Assembly (NCBI RefSeq): GCF_016903815.1
Contig: NZ_CP069973.1
Source: Escherichia coli
GTDB lineage: Bacteria; Pseudomonadota; Gammaproteobacteria; Enterobacterales; Enterobacteriaceae
DNA: 64,000 bases
Reading direction: 5' to 3' (one strand)
Part shown: positions 4,215 through 47,855 of the stretch, one piece after another
Position numbering within the stretch: the first letter of the stretch is position 1
Layout: each line of letters begins with the position of its first letter
Notes under the pieces: generated by a model
What the model was told of the DNA's origin: nothing
Database searches by the model: none
What the model saw: the letters and a program-made list of their open reading frames with translations, nothing else
Made by a program: the position numbers and the translations under genes

Positions 4215-5105
4215 TCAGGCTGCCAGATCATCGTTTCCGATGGAAGCATAATAAGCTTTTTCTGCTTCTGCCGGAGGAGTATGGCCCAGCCTTCCCAGCA
4301 ATCGTCGATTGTTATACCAGTCCACCCACGTTAGTGTGGCCAGTTCCACTTCTGCACGGTTTTTCCAGCTCTTACGGTGTATTACCTCCGCTTTGTAAAG
4401 ACCATTGATGCTCTCAGCCATCGCGTTGTCATACGAGTCGCCTGTACTCCCTGTTGATGCCAGTAATCCGGCTTCTTTTAGTCGCTCCGTATAGGCCAGT
4501 GACACATACTGAGAGCCTTTATCGCTGTGATGGATGGTGCCAGACGGACGACGGGCCCACAACGCCTGCTCCAGCGCATCCAGCACGAATGTCGTTTCCA
4601 TAGACGATGAGACCCGCCACCCCACGATGTATCCGGCAAACACATCAATGATAAACGCCACATAGACGAAGCCCTGCCATGTGCTGACGTAAGTAAAATC
4701 AGCCACCCACAGCTGGTCAGGTCGTTCTGCCACGAACTGACGGTTTACGCGGTCGCCTGCGGCAACGGCTTTCCGGCTGATGGTCGTACGGACCTTTTTA
4801 CCCCGGAGAACACCGGCAAGTCCCATAACCGCCATGAGACGTGCCACTGTACATCTGGCCACCCTGATTCCTTCCCGTAACAACTGACGCCAGACTTTAC
4901 GCACACCGTACACCTGATGATTTTCATCGTATACGCGCTGTATCTCTCTCTTCAGCCAGTCGTCGTGCTGCGCACGGGCACTGCGTTTATCCGGATGATG
5001 TCGCTGTTGCTGACAATGGTAATACGTTGACGGGGCAATATGCAGTTCGCTGCATACCGGTCCGACCCCGTACTGCTCACGCAGCTTATCCAGCAGTGGC
5101 ATCAT
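4215..5105 (-). CDS. IS629-type transposase OrfB (DDE integrase core)
   Basis: 296-aa ORF with IS3-family DDE catalytic core (e.g. [16 protein letters not shown]). Confidence 0.9.
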
Positions 5106-5428
5106 TTTTTCCAGAGGCGGTCGAACTCCGCCTTCGCAAAATAAGCGGAAGCCTGGCGAAGGATATCGTTACTGCGGCGCAGTTCACGATTTTCACGTTC
5201 CAGCTCTTTCAGACGCTGACGTTCAGCGCTGGTGAGCCCACCATCACCGCCCCCGGTATCCCGCTCATGCTGGCGAACCCAGACACGCAGAGTCTCCGGC
5301 GTACAGCCAATCTTTGGAGCAATGGAACAAATTGCCGCCCACTGTGAGTCATATTCATCCTGACTTTCCAGAACCATACGAATCGCCCGCTGACGGACTT
5401 CGGGGGAAAAACGAGTATTTTTAGTCAT
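5102..5428 (-). CDS. IS629-type transposase OrfA (helix-turn-helix)
   Basis: 108-aa [26 protein letters not shown]...; IS3-family orfA, overlaps orfB for programmed frameshift. Confidence 0.9.
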
Positions 5429-18128: not shown

Positions 18129-18884
18129 ATGTTAATGGCGCAGCAGTTATCTTTCAGATTATTAAGGGGAAACAAGAGTATGGCAAGATGTACAGCTCCT
18201 GTACGTGGACATAGCTCAGCAGCAGCTGCTGCTGCCTGTCCCGCATGTCGTAATCGCAGTGGTTATCGCCGCAGTAGCTACAGTTATGATAGTTACCCTT
18301 CTTACTCATCAGGCTCTAGCGGTGGCGGAAGTTATGGAGGCAGTAGCGGTGGTTCCAGCAGCAGCGCGAAGCCACGTTGGTCAAAATCAGGGTCTTCCGT
18401 TTCTTACACAACAGCCCAAGTACAATCACTCACACCAATTCGACAAGCGGTAGAGAAACTTGCCATTGAGCAACCTGATCTGCGTGATGTCTTTCTTTGC
18501 CATGCTTGGGATGACCGACAAGGTATTGCCAAAGAGTTACACGATTTGCTCGAAGCGGCAGGTGTCAAAGTATGGTTCAGCGAAAAGGATCTTGCCCTTG
18601 GTGTTCCGATGATGCGTGCCATTGATAAAGGATTAGCAAACTCTCGAATCGGCTTGGTTTTAGTGACACCTGCATTGTTAAACCGTCTTCCTAAAGAAGG
18701 CGTTGCTGATAAAGAACTTTCCGCCTTACTGGCAGGCAACCAACTCGTTCCCATCGTGCATAACACGACGTATGAAGCTCTCCGTAATGTCAGTCCTTTG
18801 CTTGCATCCCGAAGCGGCCTCGACACGGGAGAAGATACATTGGCAGTTGTTGCAACAAAAATTGCAGAGCTGATCACTGTTTAG
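18129..18884 (+). CDS. TIR-domain protein with Ser/Gly/Tyr-rich low-complexity N-terminal region
   Basis: C-terminal ~140 aa DVFLCHAWDDRQGIAKELHDLLEAAGVKVWFSEKDLALGVPMMRAIDKGLANSRIGLVLVTPALL fits the TIR pattern; start codon uncertain (18129, 18135 or 18180). Confidence 0.75.
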   Translation: MLMAQQLSFRLLRGNKSMARCTAPVRGHSSAAAAAACPACRNRSGYRRSSYSYDSYPSYSSGSSGGGSYGGSSGGSSSSAKPRWSKSGSSVSYTTAQVQSLTPIRQAVEKLAIEQPDLRDVFLCHAWDDRQGIAKELHDLLEAAGVKVWFSEKDLALGVPMMRAIDKGLANSRIGLVLVTPALLNRLPKEGVADKELSALLAGNQLVPIVHNTTYEALRNVSPLLASRSGLDTGEDTLAVVATKIAELITV

Positions 18885-20039: not shown

Positions 20040-21682
20040 GATGAGAGATCTCCGTTGATTTGGATTGACTTCACATCATTAATCACCGCGGTAAAACTTT
20101 ACGGCATCCCGCCATTGAGCAACGCCAATGGCTCCTGATTAAAACAGAATGAATCCCCCACGAAGAAAAAATAAACCTACACGCAGAGTAAAACACACAA
20201 CAACGGCATAAATGGTTTTTAAAAACTACAAAGCCTGAAGGGAAACGGATCCACAGAACGTGCAAACAAAACACCAAAAACGCAATCAGAACGCTTTCTG
20301 CTGCTGTGAATCAACAACAATACCAAAACCTACAGCTTAACCACAAAACTCAATCACAGAGCCGAATAGCGTGTTTAAAACCTGTTTACAGATAACCCTG
20401 CCACAAGAACAAAGTTCACCAATATCAGAATCGATTTTCTCATCCTGAAAATGTTACGTTTCACTACACAGCATAAAAACGATTAACTATTGATAACGTA
20501 AACCTCATCTGAATCAAAACACCAGAACCAATCATCACGCTTTTCCTGAAAAGAGCCTTGCGCTGAGAAAAAACACCAGGGTCAGTTAATCATCTCATCA
20601 ATCTCATCGTTACAAAAACATCCATAAAACCATTTAACAAAATCATCGTAAGCACACAGTAAATCACGCCAGGTTATCTCAGCCAAATTTTCGTTTTACA
20701 TAAAGACACTTGTCTCAGGTTAACGACTAAAAACACAAAAACTCAGAAAAGGTTAAACGTAACTTCAGAAAAATAGAATATCATATTGATTGCTTAAACA
20801 GGAAAGATTGTTTTGTAGTAGCATTAAGCTGATTTTAGTTAACGTAAAAACAGGACTGACAGGTTTACTAAACTGGATGTGTATCAGACAAAGCAATGTG
20901 TATAACAATACTTAATGAAAACACTTGTAGAATTGTTTATGAAAATACGTGTATGTCTGGTAAAACACTTAGTAGAAAATACGTGTATAACACTTACTGA
21001 AATGCTTAGTAAAAATACTTAGTAAAATATGTGTAGAATTATCTATTTAAAAAGATATGTATATAACACTTAATAAAAACATGTGTATATAGTATCATAC
21101 CGACATTCTCAACATCTTCAGACTTCCATACATACTGGGTGTTGATTTCTCACTTTTACAGCCAGCATGGAGTTTTCTGTCCTAAAAACAGAGCAGATTT
21201 ACTCTGGAATTATTTTTCTACCCCCGTATTTCAGGCCCCAGAAAAGACAATCCGAAGCAAACCGTTTGTCAGCCTCCATATCATCTTTTACCCCCGGAAA
21301 GTGATCGCGTTTACAACCAGAATGACAGCCATACTGATTATGTCGTCTCCCGGCCCCCTTCACATATAACATGCATGTCTGTCATTGCTTACTGCTCCAC
21401 ATGACCGGATTTCACATACAGGATGCACATTCAGTGTTTTTATCGCTACTATAACAGACAGATTACTGTCGTCTTTACTCTTCAGATTGTTAATCTGACC
21501 ACAAGAACAGCCGAACGGCAAAACGCCCTCCACAAGGGGCACATGAACCATAGTTGATAGCATGTTTTTCCTAATCAAGGAATAGTTCAGGAATATTTTA
21601 TTGCATTAATAACTGGCGAATAATCGTTCTGTGAACACAAAATGCTTTTATTTGTAAATTTTATTGCATTGCACTCGTTTTA

Positions 21683-22522
21683 TTGATATGGGGTTTAATA
21701 ACAGATAACCCGGAAAGAAGGAGAAAACAGATGACATTACGGATTAACGATCAGGGGCGAGATAAACAGAATCAATTTTTATCGAAAAATGGAGAAAATC
21801 TGAATTCGTTAAAATCGCGTCATGTGCAGGATAGGCATTTACCTGAATGGCTTAAGGATAAAGTTGCAGCATTCTGGTTTTGTCTGGTGATAAAGGATAT
21901 GAAAGTGTCAGGGAGCAGTTACTATGAACTTACCATGCAACTTCCCACTTCTGAAGAATCTGTTTGCATCAGTAAGCTGTCATCCTCAACCCATGAGATT
22001 CGGCTGGAGATCATCAGGCGATGGATTGATAGTGTAGCGCAGATAGAAACGGAAGCTTTTACTAAAAATCTCGTTGATGCCATCTATAAAAACTGGAAGG
22101 AAATCGGGAACAAAAACCAGGCCACATGGCTTAAAAAAAATCCGGAACAACTCGAGTGGGCATGGAAATATATTAACATTCGTATTCCCGAGTCACATTT
22201 AACCTGGTTTTGCCCCGTCAATAACGAAGAGAAACGCATTGCCATCTTAGCATTGCTTAAAATACTGTATCCCGGAGATATACCATGCCAGTACAACGAC
22301 AAAGAGTTTCATGTCGGGATCTGCGCTGAAGAACATTTTTACAGAAGAATGCACGACGCTTTCAGAAAACAGTTTATCGACGGGAAAAAAGATAAACGGG
22401 TACAAATTAACGTAAAGATATCACCGTCCGCAAAAAGCGCTCTGGACAGACTGACCAGAGCGAGGAAAACAACACAGCAGGCTATTCTGGAACAACTGAT
22501 TCTGAACGGTAGACTGGATTAA
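21683..22522 (+). CDS. Hypothetical protein (no recognisable domain; possible ribbon-helix-helix-like C-terminus)
   Basis: 279-aa ORF; likely true start at MTLRINDQ (21731); function unknown. Confidence 0.5.
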   Translation: MIWGLITDNPERRRKQMTLRINDQGRDKQNQFLSKNGENLNSLKSRHVQDRHLPEWLKDKVAAFWFCLVIKDMKVSGSSYYELTMQLPTSEESVCISKLSSSTHEIRLEIIRRWIDSVAQIETEAFTKNLVDAIYKNWKEIGNKNQATWLKKNPEQLEWAWKYINIRIPESHLTWFCPVNNEEKRIAILALLKILYPGDIPCQYNDKEFHVGICAEEHFYRRMHDAFRKQFIDGKKDKRVQINVKISPSAKSALDRLTRARKTTQQAILEQLILNGRLD

Positions 22523-23520
22523 CTTTCACTACTTCCACTCCTGGCAGTTTTCCTCTTTTTGTAGTGTCTCCCGGCTGCAGGCATCAGGTACTTTTCCGTC
22601 ATTTCGTTGCAGAACTCTTCAATGTAGTTAATCAGCTTCTGGTGTGCTTTCACCTTTTCTTCCCCGGGGGACGCTTTCAGATAAATGTCCTCCTTTTCCA
22701 CAAGTGTATTTATAAACTCTCCCGGACATCCCTGGTTATAAAGCAACGTGAAAAACAACACATTCCCCAGTCTCTCCAGTAACTGCGATTTAACCCTGTA
22801 TTGTTGTTTGCTGAGGATTGATTGTTTTATAAAGCTTAGTCTTGTTAAAAGTTGTTCAAATCCCGGTTCCAGTTTAAAAACAGATTTTAATACCAGGGAC
22901 TGATACTCCTGATAAAAAAGTTCAAACGTCGGGGATGCAGACTGACGAACAGATTTGGCTACAACCCATGGACTAAATCCCATGATTGGGATTTCCTTCG
23001 CTCCCTCCAGCGCACTCAGAGGTAGTCCAGCAATCCATGCGTCCAGCTTAGCCGAATCAATATCCCCGCTCAAAACCTCATACAAACTGCCCGTGAACGG
23101 TTGAGTCGGTTTTTTTGTTGTTTTACCTTCTGATTGCCTGAATCCATCCACTTTTCTCCGGATATTACGCGGAATCAGCATAAAAGGCGGGACATTAAGT
23201 GATAAACGTTTACCCGTCATACGATACCAGTGGCCCACCTCAACCTTAATCCGTGTATCTGGCCTTGTATCTGGCCTTGTATCTGGCCTTAGCTCAAGTG
23301 CTATTATGTTAAGCAGGTACAGATAACGCACCGTATAACAGTCAAAATGTTTCTCCGGATCAAACGGCTCTGATCGTTCTCTGCACACAAGTCCGCTGCG
23401 CTTCAGTATTCGCTGGGTATCTTTCCAGGCCTTACTCTGAAGAATGGTGGTAACTCTGGCTTTATTAGCAATCTCACGCAGCGCATCACTTTGTTGTGCC
23501 GTCATCTCTTCCCTCCACAC
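22519..23520 (-). CDS. Hypothetical protein containing in-frame tandem repeat (RPDT)x3, divergent from GTPase gene
   Basis: 333-aa ORF; 12-bp tandem repeat at ~23255-23292; function unknown. Confidence 0.55.
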   Translation of the reverse strand: MWREEMTAQQSDALREIANKARVTTILQSKAWKDTQRILKRSGLVCRERSEPFDPEKHFDCYTVRYLYLLNIIALELRPDTRPDTRPDTRIKVEVGHWYRMTGKRLSLNVPPFMLIPRNIRRKVDGFRQSEGKTTKKPTQPFTGSLYEVLSGDIDSAKLDAWIAGLPLSALEGAKEIPIMGFSPWVVAKSVRQSASPTFELFYQEYQSLVLKSVFKLEPGFEQLLTRLSFIKQSILSKQQYRVKSQLLERLGNVLFFTLLYNQGCPGEFINTLVEKEDIYLKASPGEEKVKAHQKLINYIEEFCNEMTEKYLMPAAGRHYKKRKTARSGSSES

Positions 23521-23611
23521 TTTGTCACTCCAGATTTTTTCACGTCCATATTACCTGAATGATAAACCGGATTAGTGTGATCCGGTTCAGCGAAATCAAC
23601 AGGATACCGGT

Positions 23612-24496
23612 ATGTCATTCAGCCATTCTTCCCTCTCTGCACAAGTGAAATCATATCTGACGTTTCTTCCTGAAGAAATTCGCCAGAAAATCCTTGAACA
23701 TCTCCACGGTGTTATTCATTACGAGCCCGTGATTGGCATTATGGGTAAATCCGGCACAGGCAAAAGCAGCCTGTGTAATGCCATTTTTCAGTCCCGTATC
23801 TGCGCCACGCATCCCCTGAACGGCTGCACCCGCCAGGCTCATCGTCTTACCCTGCAGCTCGGTGAACGCAGAATGACGCTGGTCGATCTGCCCGGCATTG
23901 GTGAAACACCGCAGCATGATCAGGAATACCGGACACTTTATCGTCAGCTGCTACCGGAACTGGATCTGATTATCTGGATCCTACGGGCTGATGAACGTGC
24001 GTATGCTGCCGATATTGCCATGCATCAGTTTTTACTGAATGAAGGTGCAGATCCCTCGCGTTTTCTGTTTGTTCTCAGCCATGCCGATCGCGTGTTTCCT
24101 GCTGAAGAATGGAACGACACAGAAAAATGCCCGTCCCGTCAGCAGGCGCTCTCACTGGCGACGGTGACAGCCCGGGTGGCAACCCTGTTCCCTTCATCAT
24201 TTCCGGTACTCTCCGTTGCTGCACCTGTCGGCTGGAACCTTCCGGCGTTTGTGTCGCTGATGATCCACGCACTGCCACCACAGGCAACCAGCGCGGTGTA
24301 TTCACATATCCGGGGAGAAAACCGCTCTGAACAGGCCCAGAAACACGCACAACAGACTTTTGGTGACGCCATCGGGAAAAGCTTTGACGCTGCCGTTGTC
24401 CGGTTCAGTTTTCCGGCCTGGATGTTACAGCTTCTCCGTAAAGCCCGGGACCGCATTATCCACCTGCTGGTCACACTGTGGGATCGTCTGTTCTGA
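23612..24496 (+). CDS. YeeP/YkfA-family GTPase (cryptic-prophage type)
   Basis: 294-aa ORF with P-loop GIMGKSGTGKSS and G-domain motif DLPG. Confidence 0.8.
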   Translation: MSFSHSSLSAQVKSYLTFLPEEIRQKILEHLHGVIHYEPVIGIMGKSGTGKSSLCNAIFQSRICATHPLNGCTRQAHRLTLQLGERRMTLVDLPGIGETPQHDQEYRTLYRQLLPELDLIIWILRADERAYAADIAMHQFLLNEGADPSRFLFVLSHADRVFPAEEWNDTEKCPSRQQALSLATVTARVATLFPSSFPVLSVAAPVGWNLPAFVSLMIHALPPQATSAVYSHIRGENRSEQAQKHAQQTFGDAIGKSFDAAVVRFSFPAWMLQLLRKARDRIIHLLVTLWDRLF

Positions 24497-46823: not shown

Positions 46824-46835
46824 TACGCTACCGCC
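46824..46835 (-). promoter_or_regulatory. ops (operon polarity suppressor) element GGCGGTAGCGTA in kpsM leader (RfaH-dependent antitermination)
   Basis: Minus-strand GGCGGTAGCGTA is the reverse complement of plus-strand tacgctaccgcc, just upstream of the kpsM start. Confidence 0.7.
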
Positions 46836-47855
46836 CCTGGCTTAACAGCTACCAATACACTGGAGGTAATACTTGACTTGTTTGTAACTGGATAAAATTC
46901 ATTCGGACGGCTTGACCTTTTAATAGCCAAAAACAATTTCAGCAGAAATTATTTCCGCAGGGATAAATAGATCTATTTCCGTCTCGTTTCTTCTAATCCA
47001 TTCTTCAGGCATGAATGTATTCGGTCTTCTGGTAATTTCAGAAAACTGGCCGTTTTAGAATGCAGAGTTAATTTCTCAGGAAATTATTTTTTGTGATTAC
47101 TGTTAACTACTTGATTATAATATCCCCTATGGATTTTATGCGTAACAATACCTACAATCTGTTTCAAACCAGAACGCACGCGATTGATTACCAATAAATT
47201 GTTCACCGAGAAACTATTTCCCTATTTAAAATTCACTCGTGTACTTCTTATTTATATCTACAGCCCCCTCTTTACAGCCATATTTGTGATTCATATCACA
47301 TTTAAATGGTGTTATTTAAGTCGCATCAATAATCCCGAAGGTAATTATTTTCGTCGATTAAAATATACATCTTGATTATTTTGTGTGTTTATTTTAACCA
47401 GTGTTACAACCAACACCATCCCTCAGTAGATATACCTGAGCAGACATTTCTTAAAATCAACGAATAGTTTCACTGGAAATTATTATGCTTATTTGAAATT
47501 CCCTTTCTGATTATCTCCAGGAATTTTACTAATTTCCAAGCTACACAAAATACAGATCACACAAGAATTATCCTATATGTTTTGGCCTATCAATTGTTAC
47601 TCAATGATTTATTGCAACTATTAATAATCATAATGTGTCAAAACACTTAAGCAACTTTACAGTCTGAGAAAGGTGTCGATTAACGAAGGCTACATGGTGA
47701 AAAACAGGTTCCTTCAGTGTTACCGAATATTCCGTGGTGGTCTGGAGGGAGATAATTCTTGCTACATCGAAACTCAGCCCGGTAAGCGGGTTTGACAGTT
47801 CCGCACTCACCATTGGGCTAAGGGTTATCAGGTGGGGTTAAGGAAATGGCAATAC

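Follow-up and report, generated by a model that had tools for sequence, protein, structure and literature searches.

A variable in-frame 12-bp tandem repeat in a hypothetical gene of an Escherichia coli chromosomal island

The repeat described here lies in a chromosomal genomic island of E. coli, and the gene that carries it (the host gene below), together with its surroundings, matches the chromosome of E. coli strain 222 at 100% identity. Positions in the text and in Table 1 are those of the window, by which we mean the whole 64,000-nucleotide stretch of DNA that was analyzed. Upstream, the island contains IS remnants, T6SS gene fragments, a TIR-domain gene and YagK/YfjJ (“inovirus Gp2”) genes; downstream lies a CP4-like block with GTPase, DUF905, DUF932, antirestriction, RadC, DUF987, and YeeU/CbtA genes, which is followed by the kps capsule cluster. 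The cargo upstream of the repeat gene suggests a defense-island-like setting. Between this cargo and the genes of interest there is a stretch of ∼1.7 kb for which the identical RefSeq record annotates no gene; it has short open reading frames only, and a second, degenerate tandem array lies within it.

Table 1 Positions of the features discussed, in order along the window
Feature	Position	Strand	Description
ALIL pseudoknot	5031-5147		IS3-family frameshift element; Rfam, above gathering score, 121.5 bits
Upstream cargo	18180-18884 and upstream		Annotation of locus L001 (offset +2518): TIR-domain protein, 1652-aa AAA-domain protein, truncated T6SS genes (tssF, tssG), IS66/IS3 remnants
Stretch with short ORFs	20040-21730		∼1.7 kb
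Degenerate tandem array	20962-21027		13-nt unit, 5.2 copies, 67% matches
Convergent gene	21731-22522	plus	263 aa, WP_000175256.1, “hypothetical protein”
Shared TTAA	22519-22522	both	Overlapping TAA stops of the 263-aa and 328-aa genes
Host gene	22519-23505	minus	328 aa, WP_029396404.1, RefSeq “hypothetical protein”
Host gene ORF from GTG	22519-23520	minus	333 aa
Full period-12 tract	23254-23290		37 nt; TRF period 12, 3.1 copies, 100% matches, score 74
12-nt tandem repeat	23255-23290	in minus-strand gene	Plus-strand GTATCTGGCCTT, three perfect copies, head to tail
Divergent intergenic region	23506-23611		106 bp
Direct repeats	23509-23552		Three imperfect 15-nt repeats, TRF score 44
Palindrome	23565-23587		AACCGGAT-N7-ATCCGGTT, perfect
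GTPase gene	23612-24496	plus	294 aa, MMR_HSR1, YeeP/YfjP-like; divergent from host gene
JUMPstart element	46824-46862	minus	Rfam, above gathering score, 57.1 bits; capsule/polysaccharide region

The preliminary description of this DNA had placed the repeat in a 333-aa reading frame. That frame exists and reaches a GTG codon; the 328-aa protein is the more likely product, because a GGAGG Shine-Dalgarno sequence precedes the ATG at 23505. Judged by its sequence the host gene is a real gene, with dN/dS values of 0.41-0.62 against its diverged alleles. A HMMER scan of 1.84 billion representatives recovered 17 full-length homologs that are 22-32% identical to it, and several motifs (SKAW.NTQ..LKRSG, IRRK..F.Q, GSLY, and LGNALFF.LLY) are conserved across these distant relatives. 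The host protein had no significant match in Pfam, NCBIfam, PHROGs, or PADLOC, and its predicted fold had no relative in the PDB or BFVD. Family assignment of the 263-aa protein was attempted in the same four collections, likewise without a significant match.

The TAA stop codons of the host gene and the convergent gene overlap on opposite strands within a shared TTAA (Table 1). This 4-nt overlap is present in all E. coli alleles examined, and at locus L031, that of a distant homolog, 15 nt separate the two genes. The 263-aa protein gives a weak PHROG match to a replication initiation protein (E = 0.015), and a distant counterpart of its gene gives a weak match to RepB-RCR_reg. A convergent gene of ∼260-290 aa was retained in all three of the distant homolog loci examined, where the host family is only 22-32% identical. 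An MMR_HSR1 GTPase gene is adjacent and divergent in L031 and L032 (the same 293-aa homolog), and in L034 it lies ∼1.4 kb from the host homolog, behind two small genes; the distant pairing with the GTPase thus stands at two of the three loci examined, the third contig being too short to show the neighbor. The host, convergent, and GTPase genes look like a conserved module in CP4-like islands of Enterobacteriaceae, and since these neighbors, the GTPase wherever the flank is long enough, stay beside the host family even where it is 22-32% identical, the three genes constitute a testable functional module of such islands. The intergenic region between the host and GTPase genes contains a perfect palindrome and three imperfect direct repeats, which are candidate operator sites.

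The repeat itself lies ∼215 nt inside the coding sequence, counted from the start codon, and occupies residues 73-84 of the 328-aa product. On the coding strand the unit is AAGGCCAGATAC, read as AGG CCA GAT ACA and hence RPDT; the three units are followed directly by CGG, and the peptide, in the minus-strand reading, is RPDTRPDTRPDTR. Beyond the array the coding strand continues with a degenerate partial fourth unit (ACGG vs. AAGG), and on the plus strand the periodicity extends by 1 base on the 5′ side, to 23254. By TRF score it is the strongest tandem array in the 64-kb window. Its longest perfect period-12 self-match covers 25 positions, whereas 200 shuffles gave 7.8 on average and never more than 12, so the repeat is not a product of chance. 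The three tandem, in-frame, 12-bp RPDT copies claimed in the preliminary description are therefore confirmed by the sequence, by TRF, and by the shuffles; the start given there (23255) is correct, but its end (23292) lies 2 nt too far. Rfam, promoter, and terminator scans turned up nothing tied to the repeat. A hairpin or other secondary-structure role for the repeat DNA was considered and dropped (z = -1.07 for the single strand).

An alignment limited to close alleles was shallow and yielded no usable model of the host protein (pLDDT 46). With the distant homologs added, AlphaFold2 gave a confident model, for the most part helical, with pLDDT 79.3 and pTM 0.81, in which residues 73-87 form a coil between a helix (56-72) and a strand (88-92), pLDDT falling below 50 at residues 80-83; this placement of the loop comes from a prediction that is least confident precisely over the repeat. 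The repeat is thus predicted to lengthen a loop that already tolerates variation, and the suggestion that it might act as a linker fits this low-confidence coil in the model.

Variation in repeat number was assessed with designed variants of the protein carrying one to seven RPDT units, each of which was looked up by exact sequence in a large assembly collection. Matches were found on five contigs for one unit, in 574 index blocks for two, 2935 for three, and 57 for four, on four contigs for five units, and on one contig (five samples) for six, where a block does not stand for a strain and clonal sampling swells some of the classes; seven units had no exact match in this public collection. By this look-up three units is the most frequent form and two the next. 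A cluster table lists the exact 328-aa, three-copy protein as absent, against the 2935 blocks above, and it was not used for frequencies; because the encoding-contig index holds those blocks, absence from the table does not mean absence from public data. In the DNA of the one- to six-copy loci the units are perfect copies of AAGGCCAGATAC, the junctions are identical, and the loci differ by exact multiples of 12 nt. All six variants found are full-length and in frame, as anticipated from a unit that is a multiple of 3 and can change protein length with no frameshift.

Complete genomes present a narrower range. Of 5426 complete E. coli genomes, 742 (∼14%) carry the gene family, with matches at up to three places per genome. 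All 47 alleles with at least 99.9% identity are 1002 bp long, that is, they have three copies, and three more alleles of 990 bp prove on alignment to be shorter by exactly one RPDT unit. A synthetic two-copy query matched four complete-genome records at 100%, including a second locus of strain CS5L (NZ_CP158311.1, at 1203780-1203943), whose genome also has, at L004, a three-copy version annotated as frameshifted. A synthetic four-copy query had no exact match in the complete genomes, none of which has four or more copies, and a synthetic one-copy query matched only diverged alleles there, at no more than 97.4%. Since 47 of 47 near-identical complete-genome alleles have three copies, the locus is not hypervariable; it is moderately variable. 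The preliminary description had named identical copy number in all homologs as the result that would overturn its reading; copy number is not identical, and so that reading stands.

Whether these differences arose once or repeatedly was read from the flanking DNA (2460 bp with 77 variable sites) of 21 loci chosen by copy-number class. The haplotype table omits L003 and L004, which are not colinear with the rest owing to indels (an IS481 insertion and frameshifts). A single haplotype with zero SNPs carries three copies at six loci and in the window, four copies at four loci, and one copy at one locus. In a second group, whose flanks are no more than 5 SNPs apart, the counts are 2, 1, 1, 5, and 6, and two further flank haplotypes carry one copy and two copies, respectively. 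Because identical flanks carry different counts, copy number has changed several times with no point substitution over 2.5 kb. The distribution implies at least six apparently independent whole-unit changes among these 21 loci, selected as they were by class. The far flanks of the four-copy loci are mosaic, so the sharing of a copy number across backgrounds could in part reflect recombination and not new slippage.

The locus therefore shows defining features of a VNTR: the units are tandem beyond chance, isolates differ in their number, and the changes recur in whole units. Diverged alleles (63-91% identity) have a single unit, KPDT, REDT, KSDT, or RSVS, and each of the 17 distant homologs has one unit's worth of sequence, which is not conserved; the expansion into an array is therefore recent. 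In the single-copy ancestor the sequence is CTA AAG CCA GAT ACA CGG. Expansion probably began from an ancestral quartet AAG/AGG CCA GAT ACA (K/RPDT) followed by CGG, AAG having changed to AGG in this allele lineage. The ACGG after the unit and the AAGG at its start form a short direct homology with 12-nt spacing, from which the first duplication could have arisen. Once two perfect units were present, strand slippage at replication could add or drop whole copies, in single or multiple steps, and the outcome would be no different if the units recombined unequally. Each 12-nt step puts one RPDT tetrapeptide in or takes one out, leaving the remainder of the protein unchanged, and such length changes in the predicted flexible loop would be tolerated and are probably near-neutral. 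Published E. coli VNTRs gain and lose whole units in single and multiple steps (PMC3777172), and the pattern at this locus, including an apparent three-to-one change, agrees with them. The array is thus very probably an in-frame VNTR that gains and loses whole units, most likely by replication slippage, within a loop that tolerates the changes, with probably near-neutral effect. The earlier proposal of a slipped-strand variable locus is well supported, in that one to six units occur on an otherwise identical protein; slippage itself we infer.

The most serious alternative is functional tuning of the loop, in which a change in RPDT number would alter activity or the interaction with a partner (for example the neighboring GTPase, the 263-aa product of the convergent gene, or a target in a phage or the host), so that the variants are held by selection and not by drift. 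No other short segment varies as much between alleles as the repeat position (KPDT, REDT, KSDT, RSVSKFSCW), the gene belongs to a conserved three-gene module in an island that also has TIR-domain, large AAA-domain, and antirestriction genes, and both two and three copies are common; E. coli NeuO moreover provides a precedent for a protein altered by repeat number (PMC3046976). However, the family and fold searches found no function for the protein, its distant homologs do with one unit and a non-conserved loop, and dN/dS of 0.4-0.6 indicates only relaxed purifying selection. The counts are also unimodal, centered near three on one haplotype and near two on another, as stepwise drift predicts. 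Tuning of the loop is accordingly unlikely. A more specific version, in which the RPDT loop would be a rapidly adjustable contact surface that works with the YeeP-like GTPase and whose slippage-driven lengths are selected, is a long shot; were it true, changes in length would adjust or evade contact with a partner, for example a factor of a phage, a plasmid, or the host, and the array would be a small in-frame diversity generator in a defense or anti-defense gene.

The repeat might instead act as DNA, its units being protein-binding sites or iterons within the coding sequence, perhaps bound by the product of a neighboring gene; the weak matches of the 263-aa protein (to replication initiation, E = 0.015) and of its distant counterpart (to RepB-RCR_reg) would suit such a role. 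Most alleles and all distant homologs have a single unit, though, and copy number drifts from one to six, no other match to the unit was noticed around the genes, and the single strand is without notable structure (z = -1.07), which together make a DNA-level element highly improbable. We give as little credence to the possibility that the length variation is an artefact of assembly or sequencing. Assemblers do sometimes collapse or expand tandem repeats, and the three-copy locus of CS5L carries frameshift errors, but a tract of 12-72 nt is shorter than one sequencing read, finished genomes hold both the two- and three-copy forms, the four-copy form occurs on contigs of up to >1 Mb, and several independent samples represent each copy-number class. 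Least credible of all is an on/off contingency locus, switched through the reading frame or through the spacing of a promoter: such loci are generally found where, as here, a gene gained by horizontal transfer contains perfect tandem units, but a 12-nt unit is four codons and makes a frameshift impossible, all six observed copy-number variants are full-length and in frame, and the array is inside the coding sequence and not in the 106-bp promoter region, where it would alter spacing, so that the switching which defines a phase-variable contingency locus is absent here.

As an in-frame VNTR the array is real but ordinary, such whole-unit loci being already well known in E. coli, and to our knowledge the published MLVA schemes use loci other than this one. 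It resembles the E. coli MLVA and O157 VNTR loci in its perfect head-to-tail units, in whole-unit changes of single and multiple steps, and in the recurrence of these changes on otherwise identical backgrounds (PMC3777172). It is unlike them in being short (1-6 units of 12 nt) and in lying in an accessory island gene, and compared with the hypervariable O157 loci (PMC3777172) the RPDT array appears much less mutable. A literature search with the unit and peptide sequences gave unrelated primer matches only, and no paper with the unit in this context.

Repeat units divisible by three are also found in bacterial surface and secreted proteins, where they give length variants with the frame kept; these are usually exported antigens with long arrays. 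In the host protein neither a signal nor a family match was detected, and the array there amounts to 24 residues at most, inside an internal loop. Along with the MLVA loci, the nearest E. coli example is the heptanucleotide repeat of NeuO. NeuO, the polysialate O-acetyltransferase of the E. coli K1 prophage CUS-3, likewise has a tandem repeat near the 5′ end of a mobile-element gene that alters protein length, and O-acetylation is phase-variable (PMC3046976). In NeuO the in-frame repeat number reportedly also affects enzyme activity. The NeuO unit is 7 nt long, so that most changes shift the frame and turn expression on or off, whereas none can do so with the 12-nt RPDT unit.

The practical value of the array is modest: it offers a cheap length marker that separates otherwise identical copies of a widespread island module, and it is a warning that island alleles taken as “identical” can be 12-nt steps apart. 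Of greater interest, as a by-product, is the host gene, which represents a conserved family with no detectable relatives in sequence or fold. Away from the module, two Rfam elements scored above their gathering thresholds in the window, an ALIL pseudoknot far upstream and a JUMPstart element on the downstream side, in the capsule/polysaccharide region (Table 1).
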